Sequence record: NC_047767.1
Direction: 5' to 3' (one strand)
DNA from: Staphylococcus phage vB_SscM-1
DNA: 64,000 nt
Shown: in pieces, positions 10,222 through 31,282 of the stretch
Layout of the letters: the number at the start of each line of letters is the position of its first letter
How positions within the stretch are numbered: the stretch's first letter is position 1
The notes under the pieces: model-generated
The model's database searches: none
Seen by the model: the letters and a program-made list of their open reading frames with translations, nothing else
Told to the model about the DNA's origin: nothing
Translations under genes and position numbers: made by a program

Positions 10222-10565
10222 ATGGATGGAAAGAAAATATTAAAAATAGCTCAAGAAACATTTGGTACTGAGGAGATAACAAGAGAACAATTAGACCACA
10301 TTATCAACATGTTAAATCCCTCAACATATATGTTAAGGTACCATACTTTAAGAGGGCACCCTATTACATTTAGTATTCCTAATAGGGATAGAAGTAAAGC
10401 ACAGGCACACCGCCCCTGGCAAGTAAAAATCGTAAATGACACCCATCCAAATAAAGTAGTAATTAAAAGCAGACAGCTTGGATTATCGGAAATGGGTGTA
10501 ATGGAGATGGTGCACTTTGCAGACCTTCATAGTTATGCTAACGTGAAGTGTTTGTTTACATTCCC
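10222..10565 (+). CDS. terL: terminase large subunit, exon 1 (ATPase N-terminus with Walker A)
   Basis: KSRQLGLSE resembles the T4 gp17 Walker A motif SRQLGKT. The track ORF runs on to a stop at 10570 inside intron sequence. The splice site is placed after U10565 (P1: attccct pairing with ggggaat, U·G at the junction). Confidence 0.6.
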
Positions 10566-10830
10566 TAAATAGTTGGGGAATTAAAACTCTGTTAAACGGG
10601 CAAAGCTGAATAATGAATAAGCTGGTAAGAGAACCTAAGTCCAAACGGATAGAGGCAATCCCGTGCTAAATCGAACTAAGGTATATATACCTTAGTTACG
10701 TAAAAGCCTAACGACTAAATTTCTAGGTAGCTATACAAAAGGGTATAGTGAGAACTAGATAAGAAAGCTCTTTATAGAGAAGTAAAGCAGAGAGCTTAAC
10801 ACCAAAACGTTGAGCTAAGATATAGTCTAG
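10566..10830 (+). mobile_element. group I intron (terL intron 1, ORF-less, ~265 nt)
   Basis: It shares a 17-nt 5' element and a ~60-nt near-identical core (gcctaACGACUAaat...) with the downstream intron. AACGACUA resembles P7 of phage IA2 introns. It ends in G10830, and joining restores a Pro codon (cc|t) and the reading frame. Confidence 0.6.
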
Positions 10831-11041
10831 TCCGTATATAAATATCACGAAAGTGACGGTAGTAACGACTAACGAACAAATGAAGAAATTTGTTCAGTCT
10901 AGGTTAAACCCAGTACTAGAGAAGGAATATTTTAAAGATATTGTAAACTGGGACAAAGACTCACTAGGATATAAACAAATAAGAAATTCTAGTATGTTCT
11001 TTAGAACTAGTAGTAAAGCTAGTACTGTCGAAGGTGTGGAT
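10831..11041 (+). CDS. terL: terminase large subunit, exon 2
   Basis: In-frame coding piece (…PYINITKVTVVTTNEQMKKF…STVEGVD). The ORF track shows only its GTG-initiated part, 10853..11047. The splice site is placed after U11041 (P1: guggaU pairing with GUCCAC). Confidence 0.55.
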
Positions 11042-12274
11042 AGGTAGTAAGTCCACATTAAACTCTGTTAAACGGGGAAACCCCTAACGTAAAGACGAGG
11101 GCAATCCCGTGCTAAATGTTGACTTTATATAAAATATATGTTATAATATATTTGTAAGGTTAATTAAATGCCTAACGACTAAATTTCTAGGTAGCTATAC
11201 AAAAGGGTATAGTGAGAACTAGATAAGAAAACCGCCAAGATTATTTTTAGTAAGTAAATAAGTTTATAAAAAAGGAGGGTTATTGTATGGATATGGAGGA
11301 GAAATTTAAAGAAAAACTATATAATTTAGTAAAAGATGAATATACATTAATAGGTAAATACATTAGAAGTACTGAAAAAGTATGCATTAAACACAATAAA
11401 TGTGGCTATGAATGGGATGTATACCCTGGAAATATACTTAATAAAAATACTAGATGCCCTAGATGTGCAGGTAATGCAAAGCTAACACACAGTGATTTTT
11501 TATCTAGAGTTAAACATGTACATGATGATTCTATCGAAGTACTTAGCACATATAAAGGTCAACTTAAGAAAGTAGATTTACAACATGAATGTGGTTACAG
11601 GTGGTCAGCAACACCTAATAACATACTGAGAGGTAAAGGTTGCCCTAAGTGTAGAGGCTCAATGAAGCTAACACAAGAGCAGATAGATTGTAGGATGTCT
11701 GAGTTATTTGAAGGTGAGTATAAATTTTTAGAACCTTATATAAATAGTGACACAGCTATTATGTGTAAACATTCATGTGGTCATACATGGAAGGTAAGAC
11801 CTTACAATTTATTTGGAGGTAGAAAGTGCCCTGTATGTTATAGAAGGTCACAGGGAGAATTATTCATCCAAAATATTCTAGAGACTAACAAGGTTAACTT
11901 TACAATAGAAAAATCATTTGAGGGTTGTAAAGATAAGATAGCACTAAGGTTTGACTTTTACTTACCCGACTATAATTGTGTTATTGAATATGATGGTGAG
12001 CATCATTTCTTAGACAATCGTTACTCTAAAAATTCAGATTCACTAGAAGTGGTGAAAAAGCGTGATAAGATAAAGGATGATTTCTGTAGAGATAATGGTA
12101 TTAATATGATACGCATTCCATATTATATGGATGATTTAAAAGTTAAGGAACTAATATTAGAACTTCTTGGCGGAAGTAAAGCAGAGAACCTTTCACCTAA
12201 TAGAAAGGTTATGATATAGTCTAATCCGACTCTTAAATGAGTGTTAAAGTATTAGGAAACTAACGGTATAAATG
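11042..12274 (+). mobile_element. group I intron (terL intron 2, ~1.23 kb) carrying a homing-endonuclease ORF
   Basis: The core at 11059..11230 is near-identical to intron 1. The ORF sits after the core. The intron ends in G12274 and exon 3 resumes in frame at 12275 (IDYLSLDE…); 12298/12299 is an alternative 3' site. Confidence 0.6.
11287..12219 (+). CDS. intron-encoded homing endonuclease: three zinc-ribbon repeats plus a DUF559/Vsr-like (PD-(D/E)xK-fold) nuclease domain
   Basis: Three repeats CGYEWDV…CPRC, CGYRWSA…CPKC, CGHTWKV…CPVC. The C-terminus FDFYLPDYNCVIEYDGEHHF…KKRDKIKDDFCRDNGINMIRIPY matches the DUF559 pattern (hDFh…hhIEhDG..H…D..RD..L…G..hhRh). Own RBS aaaaggaggg. Confidence 0.65.
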   Translation: MDMEEKFKEKLYNLVKDEYTLIGKYIRSTEKVCIKHNKCGYEWDVYPGNILNKNTRCPRCAGNAKLTHSDFLSRVKHVHDDSIEVLSTYKGQLKKVDLQHECGYRWSATPNNILRGKGCPKCRGSMKLTQEQIDCRMSELFEGEYKFLEPYINSDTAIMCKHSCGHTWKVRPYNLFGGRKCPVCYRRSQGELFIQNILETNKVNFTIEKSFEGCKDKIALRFDFYLPDYNCVIEYDGEHHFLDNRYSKNSDSLEVVKKRDKIKDDFCRDNGINMIRIPYYMDDLKVKELILELLGGSKAENLSPNRKVMI

Positions 12275-13567
12275 ATTGACTACCTTTCACTCGATGAGTA
12301 TGACCGTGTAAATGCACTTGCTGAGTCCTCAGCATTAGAGTCTATGTCTTCTTCCCCTTTCAAAGTAGTAAGGAGATGGAGCACTCCTACAGTTAAAGAT
12401 TATGGAATAGATAAGTTATACAAACAATCAGACCAATGGTTTTATGGTTATGACTGTAAACACTGTGACCATTTTAATGAAATGAAGTATGAAGACTACA
12501 ACCCAGATGATTTATCCGCAAGTGGAAATGTTCTTCTAGTTAACCCAGATGGAATAGATGAAGAAGCTAAGACTGTTCAGGATGGAACATATCAATATGT
12601 GTGTCAAAAGTGTGGTAAACCTTTAGAAAGATGGTATTCTGGTAGATGGGCTTGCAAGTATCCTAGCAGAACTGAAAATAACAAAGGTATAAGAGGATAC
12701 TTTATAAGCCAACTTAACGCTGTATGGATTTCTTTAGATGAGATTAAAGAAAAAGAAATGAGAACAGAGTCTAAACAAGCATTTTATAACTACATTATAG
12801 GAGCACCTTTCGAAGATGTAAAAATGAAAGTGTTAGATGGAGATATCCTGGATAATAAATCACCATTTGCTAAGAAACAATTATTTAATAGAGATAGATA
12901 CAAGTACATTTCAGTAGGTATAGATTGGGGAAATCATCATTGGGTAACAGTTCATGGTATGACACATGATAATAAGGTAGACCTTATTAGACTGTTTAAT
13001 GTTAAGAAAATGAGTAGACCTGATTTAGTAGAAGCAGACTTAGAGAAGATAATGTATGAGATATCAAAATATGACCCTGATATAATTGTAGCAGATAACG
13101 GAGACTCAGGTAACAATGTTCTTAAACTCATAAATAGATTTGGAGAAGATAAAGTATTTGGATGTACTTATAAATCTTCACCAAGGTCATCAGGACAACT
13201 TAGACCAGAGTTTAATGAGAAAAAGAATACTGTAACAGTAGATAAGCTAATGCAAAATAAAAAGTATATACAAGCATTAAAAACAAAAGATATTAGGATG
13301 TACCAAGAAGTAGATGATGACTTAAAACTTTATTTAAAACATTGGCAAAATGTTATAATTATGGATGAAGAAGATGAAAAGACAGGAGATATATACCAAA
13401 TAATTAAAAGACGTGGAGACGACCATTATAGTCAGTCAGCAGTTATTGGGTATATAGGTATTAATAGACTTTTAGATTTAGAAACTAAAACTAAAGGTAC
13501 TAACTTTGAATCTACATTTGTATCTACTGATTACAACACAGAAGATAATCCCAAATATCATATTTAG
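12275..13567 (+). CDS. terL: terminase large subunit, exon 3 (C-terminal region incl. RNase H-like nuclease domain)
   Basis: Motifs VGIDWGNHHW and DIIVADNGDSG are typical of the terminase nuclease domain. The spliced product is about 615 aa. Confidence 0.65.
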   Translation: MDYLSLDEYDRVNALAESSALESMSSSPFKVVRRWSTPTVKDYGIDKLYKQSDQWFYGYDCKHCDHFNEMKYEDYNPDDLSASGNVLLVNPDGIDEEAKTVQDGTYQYVCQKCGKPLERWYSGRWACKYPSRTENNKGIRGYFISQLNAVWISLDEIKEKEMRTESKQAFYNYIIGAPFEDVKMKVLDGDILDNKSPFAKKQLFNRDRYKYISVGIDWGNHHWVTVHGMTHDNKVDLIRLFNVKKMSRPDLVEADLEKIMYEISKYDPDIIVADNGDSGNNVLKLINRFGEDKVFGCTYKSSPRSSGQLRPEFNEKKNTVTVDKLMQNKKYIQALKTKDIRMYQEVDDDLKLYLKHWQNVIIMDEEDEKTGDIYQIIKRRGDDHYSQSAVIGYIGINRLLDLETKTKGTNFESTFVSTDYNTEDNPKYHI

Positions 13568-13581
13568 GAAGTGAAATAAAC

Positions 13582-14406
13582 TTGACAATTAAAACAATTA
13601 ATGATATAATAAGTAATGTAGATTTAACTACTAAATCTATGGATGAGAATAAACTGTTTTTCTATACAGGTAAATTCTTCTCCATGGAGGATGTTATTGA
13701 TAACTTAGATAAATATAATGTTGTTTATGAGCAAGTATATAAAAGTTATGGATTTAATAACTTTTATGATATGTTCATTTACGCAGACTCCAATACTGAT
13801 AAAGTATATAAAGGAGGAAACAAAGAATTATCTAAGCTTAATAAGGTTAAAAGAAAAGTAATGAGAAATGGCAAAATGATAGAGATGACTGTGTATGAGG
13901 CTAATGGTAATGAAGAAGAAGGTAAAGATAAACAACCATCTTCAGAAGATACTTCTACACCTAGGTCAGCTATCGGAGCAAAAGCAAAAGATAATGGTAA
14001 TGGAGATACTAAGGTAAATCCTAAAAAATTAGCAACCACTTTAGGACAACTAAAGAATTCAGGAGCTAATATTGAAAATGTGAGACAAGATGCTGATATG
14101 TATAGAGAATACACTGATGAAAATGGAGAAACGATAGGTTTGTCTGTTTTTAAAGAAGACGATAATACAATCACATTAGGAGGTTTCACTGGAGCAGAAG
14201 ATGTAACAGGACTAGGTATAAGGTCAGTTATGGAACTTATAAAACTAGGAATACAGAAAGAGAAAGGTATAATTGTAGAAGGTATAGACTCAGTAGAAGC
14301 AGAAGAGTTTTTAAAAACTTTGGGGTTCAAAAAAACTCAAGAAGTTTATAAGATGAGTAAAAAAGATGTTAAAGGATTTATTGGAGACTATGGAGACTTT
14401 TTATAG
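13582..14406 (+). CDS. hypothetical protein
   Basis: 274-aa ORF with a TTG start after aggaag. Confidence 0.5.
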   Translation: MTIKTINDIISNVDLTTKSMDENKLFFYTGKFFSMEDVIDNLDKYNVVYEQVYKSYGFNNFYDMFIYADSNTDKVYKGGNKELSKLNKVKRKVMRNGKMIEMTVYEANGNEEEGKDKQPSSEDTSTPRSAIGAKAKDNGNGDTKVNPKKLATTLGQLKNSGANIENVRQDADMYREYTDENGETIGLSVFKEDDNTITLGGFTGAEDVTGLGIRSVMELIKLGIQKEKGIIVEGIDSVEAEEFLKTLGFKKTQEVYKMSKKDVKGFIGDYGDFL

Positions 14407-27747: not shown

Positions 27748-28086
27748 ATGGCATCAGAAGCTAAACAAACAGTCCATACTGGTAATACCGTCCTTCTAAT
27801 GATTAAAGGTAAACCGGTAGGAAGAGCTCAATCAGCATCAGGTCAACGTCAATATGGAACTACTGGTGTATACGAGATTGGGTCAATCATGCCTCAAGAA
27901 CACGTTTACTTAAAATATGAAGGTACATTAACAGTAGAACGTTTAAGAATGAAGAAAGAAAACTTTGCAAAACTAGGATATGCTTCATTAGGTGAAGAAA
28001 TCCTTAAGAAGGATATCATTGATATTCTTATTATTGATAACTTAACTAAACAAGTTATTATTAGTTATCACGGTTGTAGTGCCAAT
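27748..28086 (+). CDS. tail tube protein, exon 1
   Basis: 113 codons ending …ISYHGCSAN. The track ORF reads 2 more codons into the intron before its stop. Exon 1 ends on U28086. Confidence 0.6.
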
Positions 28087-28420
28087 AAATAATTGTTGCC
28101 TCTATACAGTAATGTATAGTTGAATAATACCTGAAATTGCGGGAACCCCTTAAAGCTAATCAAACTACAAAGTAATCCGAAAGGATAAGCTTGAATGTTA
28201 CGAAAGTAGAAAAAATTGATTAGATGGTATAAGGTGAGATAAAAGCATTAGTAACTAACGACATATTACTAGTGTCCTAAGTACTGGAACAATAGGAAAT
28301 CCGCAGGCAAGCTTACGAAAGTGAGAAGCTTCAACGACTGTAATAGGTAGACTCCTTATAAATAAGGGTCATGGGACAGTCTAACCCCTTTAAAATATAT
28401 TGAAAGATAGGGTGTAAGTG
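28087..28420 (+). mobile_element. group I intron (tail tube intron 1, 334 nt, ORF-less)
   Basis: A 334-nt non-coding segment ending in G28420, with conserved elements shared with intron 2 (…ucaACGACUguaau…). Exon 2 resumes the tube frame (NYNESWTTNEIVTESIEFSYLTAS). Confidence 0.55.
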
Positions 28421-28490
28421 AACTATAACGAGAGCTGGACAACTAATGAAATTGTAACAGAATCTATTGAGTTTAGTTATTTAACAGCAT
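28421..28490 (+). CDS. tail tube protein, exon 2 (70 nt)
   Basis: In-frame continuation; ends on U28490. Confidence 0.5.
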
Positions 28491-28740
28491 CAACTAACTA
28501 GGTGCCTTTACACAGCAATGTGTATCGAACAATCCTCTAATTCAGGGAACCTCTAAACATATTAAGATGTAGACAATCCTGAGCTAAGCTCCTTTAAGGA
28601 GAAAGTGCAACGACTAGTCAGAATGACGTACACTCAAGTGAGTGGAAATGGGGATTACCCTTATGGGGTAGTGATATAGTCTGAACTATATGGAAACATA
28701 TAGAAGGTTAGGAATAACGAACCTAATCGTAACATAATTG
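28491..28740 (+). mobile_element. group I intron (tail tube intron 2, 250 nt, ORF-less)
   Basis: Non-coding segment with a core resembling intron 1 (…gcaACGACUagucag…, …cagcaatgtgtat…). It ends in G28740. Confidence 0.5.
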
Positions 28741-28760
28741 CAGATAAAGCTTCAAATTAA
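28741..28760 (+). CDS. tail tube protein, exon 3 (20-nt micro-exon: ca gat aaa gct tca aat taa)
   Basis: It completes …LTAS-DKASN-stop, giving a 142-aa product, and is followed at once by a terminator hairpin. Confidence 0.45.
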
Positions 28761-28765
28761 TAAGG

Positions 28766-28800
28766 AAGACCTAACAATAAAAGTTAGGTCTTTAATTTTA
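28766..28800 (+). terminator. rho-independent terminator after tail tube
   Basis: Stem aagacctaac/gttaggtctt with loop aataaaa, then taatttta. Confidence 0.5.
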
Positions 28801-28803
28801 TAC

Positions 28804-28832
28804 TTGCTTTGTCAGAAGCAGTGTGGTATAAT
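28804..28832 (+). promoter_or_regulatory. promoter TTGCTT-N17-TGgTATAAT for the free-standing endonuclease gene
   Basis: -35 at 28804..28809, extended -10 at 28824..28832. RBS ataaggaggtaat lies before the ATG at 28856. Confidence 0.5.
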
Positions 28833-28855
28833 ATAAAATATAAGGAGGTAATATT

Positions 28856-29788
28856 ATGACAAATACAAATCAATTCACATTCAATATAGAGAAGAGTAAA
28901 GAGATATGGAATGAATGGTGTATAAACCAAAATTTAAAACCCTTAGTAGAATATGAAAAGTCACAACAAACTTTTTACTTTGAATTCTTAGAAGGTAAAT
29001 TTAAGGGGTTAGTAGGTAAAACATATTGGGCTAGTATTAAGAGAGGCTCTATTATGTTAATGAGTTGTTTAACACCTGAAAGTAAAGATAAATATATTAA
29101 GTCTTTAGGAGAGTCAAAAGGTATCAGGATACTTGAAGACTATAAAGGTGGTAGAAAGATTAAACATAAATTTATAGTAGCGGAAGGTAAATACCAAGGA
29201 TGTGAAGGATATATAACGTTAAATGATTTAGAGAGTTTAGGTAGAATAGACAACAGAAGTTTATCTGAAAAAGGAAGGAAACAATATTTTGATAAGCAAG
29301 CAAGACTCAGAGATTGTGTTATTTTAGAATATCCTAAGGAATATAGAATAAAAACTAAAGATAAGATAATAGTAAAAGATAAAGAAGGTCATGTTCATAA
29401 TATTATTGTACAGGACTTTTTTGAGAAAACATCTTTAATGGAACTATCTTGTGCTAGTGAAGGGGAGAAAATAGTTAAAGAAATACTTACTAAAAATGCT
29501 ATAAAATTTGAGAAAGAAAAATCATTCAGAAATAAAGAAGGTAGAATACAAAGATTTGACTTTTATATTAATGAAAATAATAAAGAGTATGTAATAGAAT
29601 ATAATGGTGCACAACATTATAGAGATTCTACAGGATACCTCAAAGATACTTTAGAAGTAACTCAGAAAAGAGATAAACTAAAAAAAGAATATATTAAAGA
29701 TAAAGGAATAGAGTTATTAATTATTCCTTACACAGTAACAGATAAAAAAGAAATGGAAGAAATGATTTTAGACTTTTTTAACAAATAA
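28856..29788 (+). CDS. free-standing homing-endonuclease-like protein with DUF559/Vsr-like nuclease domain (paralogue of the terL intron ORF)
   Basis: C-terminus RFDFYINENNKEYVIEYNGAQHY…QKRDKLKKEYIKDKGIELLIIPY is homologous to the C-terminus of 11287..12219. The N-terminal 200 aa are unrelated and lack the zinc-ribbon repeats. Confidence 0.6.
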   Translation: MTNTNQFTFNIEKSKEIWNEWCINQNLKPLVEYEKSQQTFYFEFLEGKFKGLVGKTYWASIKRGSIMLMSCLTPESKDKYIKSLGESKGIRILEDYKGGRKIKHKFIVAEGKYQGCEGYITLNDLESLGRIDNRSLSEKGRKQYFDKQARLRDCVILEYPKEYRIKTKDKIIVKDKEGHVHNIIVQDFFEKTSLMELSCASEGEKIVKEILTKNAIKFEKEKSFRNKEGRIQRFDFYINENNKEYVIEYNGAQHYRDSTGYLKDTLEVTQKRDKLKKEYIKDKGIELLIIPYTVTDKKEMEEMILDFFNK

Positions 29789-29844
29789 CCCTTGACTCAT
29801 CCTCAAGGGTTATGCTATACTTTAAATAAAGGAGGAGAGATATA

Positions 29845-30003
29845 ATGAATAACAGACAATCTAAAATAAAAGGATACAACATGTTTCATTATTACGACTA
29901 CCCTACAACTAAAGGAAAATTTAAAAAGATAATGAAAAGGAAATCTAGAACAGAACTTAAAAAAGACTTACAGAAAGAAAGGGATAACTATGAAAAAGAG
30001 TAA
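29845..30003 (+). CDS. hypothetical small basic peptide (52 aa)
   Basis: RBS aaaggaggag 7 nt upstream; K/R-rich (pI very high). Below the ORF-track size cutoff. Confidence 0.3.
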   Translation: MNNRQSKIKGYNMFHYYDYPTTKGKFKKIMKRKSRTELKKDLQKERDNYEKE

Positions 30004-30133
30004 TAAAAAGACCTTAGGTAAGATGACACATAAAAGAGCAGTTTGGGATATTAACCCTGTAACAAGAGTAACTAAAGACAAAACAAAATATACTAGAAAA
30101 AAGAAGCATAAAAATGTTGACAATAATTATTAA
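29990..30133 (+). CDS. hypothetical small basic peptide (47 aa)
   Basis: Overlaps the previous ORF by 14 nt in another frame; extremely K-rich. Its 3' end overlaps the next promoter. Confidence 0.2.
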   Translation: MKKSNKKTLGKMTHKRAVWDINPVTRVTKDKTKYTRKKKHKNVDNNY

Positions 30134-30145
30134 AGATGTTATAAT
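30117..30145 (+). promoter_or_regulatory. sigma-A consensus promoter TTGACA-N17-TATAAT
   Basis: -35 at 30117..30122 and -10 at 30140..30145, upstream of the 30176 gene. Confidence 0.55.
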
Positions 30146-30175
30146 ACTATTATAAACAGTAAGGAGACGATATTA

Positions 30176-30436
30176 ATGAGAATGACAGAGCATGTAAGAT
30201 ATACTATGGATTGCTTTATGCAACTAGGTGTTACATTTGAAGTAACACCTGAAGCCATTATTGTAGTAGCAACAGATGAAGATGTTTACAGTATCCAATT
30301 TAAAGATGGTATTGCAGAGGTAGCATATAGATATTATGGAAAACTTAAAAGATTAGGTGTGTTACAGCATTTAACAAACTATACACTAGAAGAAACACCA
30401 CAAATGTGTGAAGAGATAAAGGAGCATATTCAATGA
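30176..30436 (+). CDS. hypothetical protein
   Basis: 86-aa ORF with RBS aaggagacg. Confidence 0.5.
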   Translation: MRMTEHVRYTMDCFMQLGVTFEVTPEAIIVVATDEDVYSIQFKDGIAEVAYRYYGKLKRLGVLQHLTNYTLEETPQMCEEIKEHIQ

Positions 30437-30729
30437 AAAAAATAACAATTATCAGAGAAGAATTAGAAAGTAATTTAAGTAAATTCCCAGAAGGGAAAAG
30501 TAAGTTTGATGCAATTGAAATTAACAGTATTTTAGAAGTATTTAAATCTAAAACTAGACAAGCAGAGAAGATTACTAAGAAGTACTTACCAGGACAAGAA
30601 GTACTGACAATTGATTACAGTCTGTATGACTCATTACAGGAGTATTATACATACTTAATCAATAATAAAGAAAGAATCATTCAAGGATTACAGGAAATTG
30701 TAAATAAAATAAAAGATTTAGAAAAGTAA
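30433..30729 (+). CDS. hypothetical protein
   Basis: 98 aa; translationally coupled (atga overlap). Confidence 0.5.
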   Translation: MKKITIIREELESNLSKFPEGKSKFDAIEINSILEVFKSKTRQAEKITKKYLPGQEVLTIDYSLYDSLQEYYTYLINNKERIIQGLQEIVNKIKDLEK

Positions 30730-30859
30730 TTTTGACTTTAAAAGTAAATATGTTATAATAGAGATAAGCTTAAGAGCCTGTACTAAGTACGTGTTATATT
30801 AAATATGACAGTGAATAGTACAGGTTTATTATTTATAAAAAGGAAGGTAAAGGATATTT

Positions 30860-31282
30860 ATGGAAGAAAATAAAGAGACTAAAGATGTTAAAGATATGAC
30901 ACCTGAAGAAATTGAAGAAATGAAATATAAAGTAGAAAAAGACAAAGAAAAGACAGTTAACAAAGTAATACGTGGCGTTAATGATGTATGGGAAAAGGAA
31001 TATGATTTTAAAGAACTAGACTTAAAATTTAAAGTTAAAGTTAGATACCCTAATGCTAGAGAGCAAGGTCGTATTTTTGCTTTACGTTCATCTTTCCTAG
31101 GTGGCATGGATATGTACCAAAATGAAGATGTATTCCAAGCATACCAGATGTTAGCAACGTTACAAGAAGTGGGGGAAGAAGTTCCTAAAGAATTCAGAGA
31201 TGTTGAAGAAGTATATAACTTATACCCATTAAAAGTTATGTTCCAAGACTGGATTGAATTCTTAAGTTCCTTTCGATACTAG
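30860..31282 (+). CDS. putative tail assembly chaperone (acidic)
   Basis: 140-aa acidic protein upstream of the tape measure gene. Confidence 0.35.
   Translation: MEENKETKDVKDMTPEEIEEMKYKVEKDKEKTVNKVIRGVNDVWEKEYDFKELDLKFKVKVRYPNAREQGRIFALRSSFLGGMDMYQNEDVFQAYQMLATLQEVGEEVPKEFRDVEEVYNLYPLKVMFQDWIEFLSSFRY

Follow-up and report, generated by a model that had tools for sequence, protein, structure and literature searches.

Within the 64,000-nucleotide (nt) stretch of DNA from Staphylococcus phage vB_SscM-1 (NC_047767.1) that we analysed, called the window hereafter, we examined terL, the gene for the large subunit of the terminase. An initial annotation had described this gene as interrupted by two near-identical group I introns. 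Three open reading frames (ORFs) on the + strand have terminase-like coding capacity (10222-10572, 10853-11047 and 12272-13567). They are separated by two non-coding stretches, the second of which holds an ORF of 310 amino acids (aa). The distribution of the terL coding capacity over three + strand pieces was borne out both by these ORFs and by alignment with the terL gene of phage UHP46, which has no intron. The predicted arrangement is as follows, with the caret marking the junctions.

10222..10566, + strand: terL exon 1, codons 1-115, last base U10566, from blastn and tblastn comparisons with intron-less UHP46 terL.
10567..10867, + strand: intron 1, 301 nt, IA-like group I, without an ORF, in phase 0 after codon 115 (FTFP^TNEQ), last base G10867.
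10868..11041, + strand: terL exon 2, 174 nt, codons 116-173, last base U11041.
11042..12274, + strand: intron 2, 1233-nt group I intron of the same family, in phase 0 after codon 173 (EGVD^IDYLSLDE), last base G12274.
12275..13567, + strand: terL exon 3, codons 174-603 plus the stop codon.

The domains expected of a terminase are distributed over these exons. Exon 1 holds a Walker A-like motif, KSRQLGLS (aa 82-89), and exon 3 holds a Walker B-like motif, the remainder of the gpA-type ATPase domain and the RNase H-like nuclease domain, so that the earlier assignment of the Walker A and nuclease motifs to these two exons holds. The insertion site of intron 2 is four codons upstream of the Walker B-like LSLDE. 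Positions 1-344, 344-520 and 520-1812 of UHP46 terL align to window positions 10222-10565, 10866-11042 and 12275-13567, respectively, with a one-base ambiguity at each junction. The boundaries were searched for the best protein match under the constraint of a U before the intron and a G as the last intron base. This search gave a single solution, with intron 1 at 10567-10867 and intron 2 at 11042-12274. Removal of these two segments joins CCU^ACU and GAU^AUU. The predicted spliced junctions are ACATTCCCT^ACTAACGAA between exons 1 and 2 (TTCCCT^ACTAAC) and GGTGTGGAT^ATTGACTAC between exons 2 and 3 (GTGGAT^ATTGAC). The spliced coding sequence (CDS) has 1812 nt and encodes 603 aa without an internal stop.

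For intron 2, the boundaries are exactly those implied by the initial annotation, as judged from the UHP46 junction. For intron 1, it was right that exon 1 ends after a U and that both introns end in G, but the exon end had been placed at 10565 instead of U10566 and the final G at 10830 instead of G10867. The 3' splice site proposed at 10830/10831 thus lies 37 nt before the corrected one, and exon 2 measures 174 nt, not 211. Similarly, splicing does give one continuous terminase, although of 603 aa rather than ~615. The comparison with an uninterrupted terminase that had been suggested as a check yields a gapless match over 603 aa, with 595 of 603 residues of the predicted TerL identical to intron-less UHP46 TerL; this upholds the splitting of the gene and not the earlier 3' boundary of intron 1.

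Profile searches treat the spliced product as a single protein. The hit to phrog_675 extends from end to end (E 3e-245, with aa 16-598 on profile positions 7-572 of 576), and the Pfam GpA_ATPase domain runs unbroken over aa 77-291, across both junctions, with 66 bits versus 34 bits for exon 3 alone. The match to Terminase_6C is weak (18.8 bits, under the cut-off of 22.6). Insertion sites are named here after the codon that they follow. Site 115 is empty in four metagenome contigs of close relatives (L007-L009 and L012), with the junction TTTCC(G/T)^ACAAA. The spliced terL genes of phages St14.GH, PSU6, qdsa001 and Romulus each form an open frame of 605-608 aa. Intron excision restores the frame exactly in five of the five terL genes reconstructed, namely that of the window and those of the four other phages.

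Both introns have a group I core, with P1, P3-P9 including the P3/P7 pseudoknot, P7.1 and P7.2. Its elements were located at the following positions.

10570-10573, + strand: P10 guide of intron 1, UAGU, pairing with exon 2 bases +1 to +4, ACUA (10868-10871).
10575..10581, + strand: internal guide sequence of intron 1, GGGGAAU, forming a P1 of 7 base pairs (bp) with exon ATTCCCT (10560-10566), with U-G at the splice site.
10587-10591 and 10788-10792, + strand: P3 of intron 1.
10596-10600 and 10660-10664, + strand: P4 of intron 1.
10713..10717 and 10823-10827, + strand: P7 of intron 1, GACUA and UAGUC.
10722-10726 and 10755-10759, + strand: P7.1 of intron 1.
10731-10748, + strand: P7.1a of intron 1.
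10768-10779, + strand: P7.2 of intron 1, hairpin CUCU/AGAG.
10793-10816, + strand: P8 of intron 1.
10832-10859, + strand: P9 of intron 1.
11051..11059, + strand: internal guide sequence of intron 2, GUCCACAUU, pairing with exon GGUGUGGAU (11033-11041) in a 9-bp P1.
11232..11239 and 12166-12173, + strand: P7.2 of intron 2, CCGCCAAG and CUUGGCGG, 8 bp, enclosing the ORF, read from the sequence and the alignment.

The two P1 pairings proposed at the outset, attccct/ggggaat and gtggat/gtccac, both exist with a U-G pair at the splice site, the second as part of (GGT)GTGGAT/GTCCAC(ATT). The element AACGACUA had correctly been recognized as P7-like, P7 being GACUA/UAGUC. In intron 2, the 8-bp P7.2 replaces the CUCU/AGAG hairpin of intron 1, and the ORF sits in its loop. 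A possible P10 of intron 2 pairs AGGUAGU (11042-11048) with exon 3 bases +5 to +11.

A structure derived for intron 1 was mapped onto nine aligned introns of the family, which come from six insertion sites in the window and four phages. The test covered 48 pairs in 12 helices, with P3 and P7 as a pseudoknot, and its controls were 500 shuffles and partners slid along the alignment. Paired cells make up 95.1% of the total, versus 74% in the shuffled alignments and 27-41% with partners slid by 1-3 columns. Compensatory changes on both sides occur in 35 of the 48 pairs, and none of the 500 shuffles reaches the observed values. P4, P6, P7.1, P7.1a, P9 and P9a have 98-100% of their cells paired, with compensatory changes present; P7.1 (UCUAG/CUAGA) and P7.1a (CUAUAC/GUAUAG) covary at 100% pairing. 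Pairing is slightly lower for P3 and P8 because two rows are misaligned. As P1 was misaligned for several rows in the MAFFT alignment, we scored it directly on the sequences. In each of the 18 terL introns examined, which represent eight sites, P1 comprises 5-9 bp and places a U-G pair at the splice site. The P1 guide lies 8-20 nt into the intron, and its sequence covaries with that of the exon. P1 is the most telling group I feature of these introns. The position of P7.1 and P7.2, after P7 and before the P3 3' strand, assigns the introns by layout to subgroup IA (IA2-like). A search of 2 kb with the Rfam model RF00028, also suggested as a check, gave local matches to both introns, at 10556-10849 for intron 1 (full model length, 35.7 bits, E 6e-7) and at 11072-11183 for intron 2 (partial model, 30.5 bits, E 2e-5).

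Intron 2 contains two further features.

11119..11147, + strand: sigma-70-like promoter, TTGACT, 17 nt (with TG), TATAAT, in the P6 extension of intron 2; a candidate judged by sequence.
11287..12219, + strand: putative homing endonuclease ORF, 310 aa, with a strong Shine-Dalgarno sequence, AGGAGG, at 11273-11278.

The last 54 nt of the ORF overlap the 3' strands of P7.2, P3, P8 and P7, and its stop codon is within P7. In the encoded protein, three zinc-ribbon modules of the CxxC type precede a Vsr-like nuclease domain at the C terminus. Its Pfam matches are DUF4379, CapR and, weakly and under the cut-off, DUF2726, and it matches phrog_559 with an E of 8e-87. Among its 348 homologues, the 99%-identical cluster comes from metagenome assemblies only, and the next relatives are at most 55% identical. 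D223, E234, H240 and the three CxxC pairs are invariant in 50 aligned homologues, and D236 is kept in at least 90%. The AlphaFold model (predicted local distance difference test score, pLDDT, 88) has three repeated small modules and then an alpha/beta domain, whose top fold matches in the PDB are to E. coli Vsr, 1vsr and 1cw0 (probability 1.00, E 8e-4). The ORF thus codes for a putative Vsr-like (PD-(D/E)xK) homing endonuclease. I-Bth0305I is a characterised homing endonuclease of Vsr fold, and the C-terminal domain of the window protein is predicted to share that fold. Proteins of phrog_559 with a Vsr-like domain have been reported within terL (phrog_675) introns of Bastillevirinae (PMC11878797); PHROG family 559 is common to those endonucleases and the window ORF.

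The putative promoter has a scan score of 11/12 and is 140 nt upstream of the endonuclease ORF, and the Romulus record has a feature annotated as 'promoter' at the homologous position (2181-2209). According to reviews, intron endonuclease genes of such phages have early promoters of their own (PMC10383478). A separate site that fits the sigma-70 consensus at 12/12 positions (TTGACA, 17 nt with TG, TATAAT) is found at 13582-13610, just past the terL stop, where it overlaps the TTG start of the following ORF (13582-14406).

We conclude, with a probability of roughly 0.93, that terL is one essential gene split by two group I introns of one family, whose removal by splicing we infer. A number of points weigh against this conclusion or parts of it. 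Splicing of the window terL was deduced from sequence alone. Both RF00028 scores are under the Rfam gathering score of 50, and Rfam scans of the whole window (gathering threshold; E <= 0.01) reported nothing. P7 is invariant and therefore uninformative for covariation, a P2 helix is not evident in either window intron, and the P10 of intron 2 lies four bases off the splice site. Regarding the ORF of intron 2, the similarity to Vsr found by Foldseek is modest (E 8e-4, template modelling score 0.56 on the target), and comparison of the endonuclease with PDB chain sequences and NCBIfam gave nothing significant. This AT-rich region shows no enrichment in promoter-like sites, with 22 found versus 19.8 expected.

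From group I chemistry, each intron would fold into its core once transcribed. The internal guide sequence would pair with the last 7-9 bases of the exon, leaving a U-G wobble at the cleavage site, and an external guanosine would attack the 5' splice site. The freed exon would then attack behind the terminal G of the intron. The endonuclease, probably transcribed from its own promoter within intron 2, would cut the intron-less terL of co-infecting relatives near codon 173; around the insertion point of intron 2, UHP46 terL reads GAGGGTGTGGAT^ATTGACTATCTT. Intron 2 would then be spread by repair of the cut from the copy that bears it. As intron 1 has no nuclease gene and is only 174 bp away, it would spread only via co-conversion or ordinary recombination.

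In indirect support of homing, the presence or absence of introns differs among close relatives, and the exons are mosaic. Their identity to UHP46 is 88-91% beside the introns (10429-11041 and 12275-12574) versus 97% far in exon 3 (12575-13567). Identity to St14.GH is 92-95% in exon 1b and exon 2 but only 73-77% in exon 3. Co-conversion accompanying the gain or loss of introns would agree with this pattern. At site 69, the introns of PSU6 (L004, 3594-3862) and qdsa001 (L005, 2582-2850) are 100% identical over 269 nt between exons that are ~80% identical, which points to a recent horizontal transfer of this intron.

The introns could be real and nevertheless give rise to alternative products as well, either through skipping of exon 2, with an in-frame loss of 58 codons, or as timing switches that sense guanosine triphosphate (GTP). 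The 174 nt of exon 2 correspond to exactly 58 codons, and ACUA, the P10 target of intron 1, recurs at exon 3 bases +5 to +8. Skipping has been observed for Twort orf142 and gives the dominant splice variant of the SIOphi terminase in vitro (PMC11878797); the idea of a GTP-sensing switch was proposed for introns in the same publication. However, the P1 helices are wholly different (AUUCCCU versus GUGGAU), so that neither guide can hold the other's exon, and the skipped product would be devoid of part of the ATPase core. By analogy with those systems, exon skipping or a timing switch may be conceived of in this phage, but we regard it as unlikely.

Exchange of sequence between the two introns was considered in view of the segments that they share. 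These include a 21-nt repeat (10584-10604 and 11060-11080, 95% identity), inside which the 17-nt shared element noticed earlier, AAACTCTGTTAAACGGG, is indeed found as an exact match. There are also an 18-nt exact block (10654-10671 and 11100-11117), a 72-nt block (10695-10766 and 11159-11230, 96% identical) and a 56-nt block with 75% identity. The near-identical core of ~60 nt was likewise confirmed, and is fully identical over 61 positions.

10706..10766, + strand: 61-nt block comprising J6/7, the P7 5' strand, P7.1 and P7.1a; 61/61 identical to 11170-11230; contains AACGACTA.

In this patch, same-site orthologues of intron 1 differ from it by 3, 11 and 15 nt, and site-173 introns by 0-2 nt. 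In contig L007, the introns at sites 87 and 173 are likewise identical to each other in this patch. The P7.1a hairpin exists in variants that are scattered over insertion sites regardless of position, which suggests recombination among family members. Local exchange or gene conversion within the genome is thus possibly at the origin of the 61-nt patch, and slow evolution of the block is an equally simple explanation. We see only a slim chance that gene conversion is ongoing between these introns, 174 bp apart, along with a TerL shortened by 58 residues through skipping of exon 2, or a switch of packaging timing. Searches of the window for other copies of the intron family, with AACGACTAAA and GATATAGTCTA and by blastn of both introns, found none.

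The initial annotation went further and attributed the near-identity of the introns to a recent duplication or to fresh ectopic homing in this genome. The complete identity of the 61-nt block, where same-site orthologues of intron 1 have diverged, speaks for such an event, but the remainder of the introns does not. Over alignable columns, the window ribozymes are 73% identical to each other. In contrast, the site-115 introns of PSU6 and St14.GH share 86-89% identity with intron 1 along its full length, and those at site 173 of the Silviavirus phages qdsa001, Romulus and KSAP7 share 94% with the ribozyme parts of intron 2, and these are phages of other genera. As each intron is closer to same-site introns elsewhere than to its neighbour, a recent duplication of the whole intron is not supported. 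From these sequence relationships, both insertions therefore appear to be old, site-specific lineages of one intron family. The same annotation placed intron 1 at 10566-10830, for a TerL of 615 aa. The misplaced 3' splice site is explained by the 36 nt at 10831-10866, which have no stop in the exon frame, and a G does stand just before 10831. Nevertheless, that junction retains 36 nt of the intron, P9 and the 3' tail, and inserts 12 residues, PYINITKVTVVT, whose codons are absent from all intron-less alleles (UHP46, L007-L009 and L012). The segment 10832-10859 forms the covarying P9/P9a helices of the family, and P10 fits 10868, whereas from 10831 onward the best pairing has 3 bp and is not at the junction. 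We thus give very little credence to this version of the locus, in its boundaries as in its origin.

It is just as improbable in our view that the pieces remain unspliced, with terL decayed or fragmented, or with its pieces translated separately into polypeptides that assemble. They are annotated as separate 'terminase large subunit' CDSs in many database records, and the Rfam scores mentioned above would agree with this possibility. However, exon 2 is without a start codon or ribosome-binding site of its own, on which ground separate polypeptides were rejected; the GTG at 10853 lies in the P9 of the intron. The breaks adjoin the ATPase's catalytic motifs, the RNA between the pieces shows a covarying group I core with guides matching each exon end, and the exact restoration of the frame extends to every terL gene reconstructed. 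Up to five such interruptions are found in phages that are viable and propagated, and TerL is among the proteins identified by liquid chromatography-tandem mass spectrometry in a Kayvirus with an intron-split terL (PMC5618024). Two other candidates were discarded, an intein for the in-frame stops right after both 5' junctions, cct^aaa TAG (10570-10572) and gat^agg TAG (11045-11047), and translational bypass for the excessive length of the gaps (301 and 1233 nt).

With terL read as a gene split by two group I introns, we compared it with those of related phages. By sequence, the source phage appears to be a Staphylococcus/Mammaliicoccus Twort-like myovirus (Herelleviridae, Twortvirinae), closest to Sciuriunavirus. 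The window exons are 92-95% identical at the nt level to those of UHP46 and ZCSS1 (Sciuriunavirus), which both have an uninterrupted 603-aa terL. No record in the phage collection covers at least 80% of the window terL region; hence, its exact arrangement is not among the deposited phage genomes searched. The terL introns of the window and its relatives are distributed as follows.

UHP46 and ZCSS1: no terL intron.
Window: two terL introns, after codons 115 and 173.
Contig L012: two terL introns, at sites 65 and 173 (the contig ends inside the site-173 intron).
Contigs L007, L008 and L009: three terL introns, at sites 65, 87 and 173 (the 5' end of L009 is inside the site-65 intron).
PSU6 (vB_SurM-PSU6, OP913464): three terL introns, at sites 69, 115 and 178.
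St14.GH (PV641622): four terL introns, at sites 65, 115, 173 and 556.
qdsa001: four terL introns, at sites 69, 87, 173 and 392.
Romulus and KSAP7: five terL introns, at sites 69, 87, 115, 173 and 556.

Site 87 falls within the Walker A-like motif (KSRQLG^LS), sites 173 and 178 flank LSLDE, site 392 comes after DWG and site 556 after RRGDD.

The Silviavirus phages (Romulus/Remus, KSAP7/KSAP11 and qdsa001) have introns of the same family at the same two sites as the window, 115 and 173, with the same P1, P7, P7.1 and P9 architecture and a promoter-like element in the same place. They differ in having four or five terL introns instead of two and in carrying an ORF in the site-115 intron, which has none in the window. 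In addition, their site-173 intron keeps only remnants of an endonuclease gene, whereas that of the window has the intact 310-aa ORF. In the site-173 intron of qdsa001 (L005, 3840-4394), window intron positions 340-999 are deleted, and in that of Romulus and KSAP7 (L006, 2104-2609) only 659-718 of the ORF interior is left. Judged from these sequences, this is a clear example of the decay of an endonuclease gene inside a retained intron.

Other relatives share one or the other intron with the window. St14.GH has an ORF-less site-115 intron, 86% identical to that of the window, and an ORF-bearing site-173 intron with a related endonuclease; it differs by its extra introns at 65 and 556 and by a site-173 ORF of 369 aa that is only ~68% identical at the nt level. 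The site-115 intron of PSU6 is the closest to that of the window (87% over the full length), but this phage has its third intron after codon 178 (phase 2) instead of 173 and an extra intron at site 69. Contigs L007, L008 and L009 carry intron 2 with a 99% identical endonuclease; they are devoid of the site-115 intron and have introns at 65 and 87 instead. In L008, the interval holding the site-65 and site-87 introns contains two ORFs, of 323 aa (DUF723/DUF4379) and 172 aa (HNH_3).

In phage Twort, terL carries an intron of the window family and a 'homing endonuclease' ORF (764-1165) within L013 1-1300. This intron, upstream of an exon starting near codon 300, would be at a ninth insertion site. 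A blastn search of Twort bases 1-50,000 with the window introns (E < 1e-3) matched only this terL intron and gave no match to an orf142 intron. Landthaler and Shub (1999, 2002) reportedly described self-splicing introns of group I in orf142 and nrdE of Twort. In the IA2 introns of phage T4 (td, nrdB and sunY) and in the Twort introns, P7 and the P3 3' strand are separated by P7.1 and P7.2. A single gene can hold several such phage introns, and their endonuclease ORFs are located in peripheral loops. By analogy, the window introns would have their chemistry and general IA architecture in common with those of Twort orf142 and nrdE and of T4, and they differ from these IA2 introns in that no P2 helix is evident.

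The tail tube gene, which we take to be the homologue of Twort orf142, a known intron carrier, is apparently also interrupted in the window (27748-30860). An ORF at 27748-28092 covers positions 1-113 of the 141 of phrog_985, and it is followed at 28856-29788 by a second 310-aa Vsr-like ORF (phrog_559/phrog_7140). RF00028 at E <= 1 finds nothing at 27748-30860. UHP46 and ZCSS1 have the same tail tube arrangement, with 96% identity, annotated as 'VSR endonuclease' and 'tail tube protein'.

Group I introns are characteristic of Twort-like phages, and terL is a usual host for them (PMC5618024, PMC7497331, PMC10383478, PMC11878797). The terL introns described here are thus real but ordinary for Twortvirinae, and the window is a further instance of a well-documented feature. 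The terL gene should be annotated as one joined CDS (10222..10566, 10868..11041, 12275..13567), the alternative being three 'terminase' fragments and a 'hypothetical protein'. Many deposited Twortvirinae genomes call for this correction too. The window has an intact endonuclease gene, which is decayed in Silviavirus, and so offers convenient material for assays of the activity and target of this zinc-ribbon plus Vsr-like enzyme. Finally, the locus adds one state to a polymorphic system in which close relatives have 0, 2, 3, 4 or 5 terL introns, distributed over eight insertion sites that mostly adjoin catalytic motifs.

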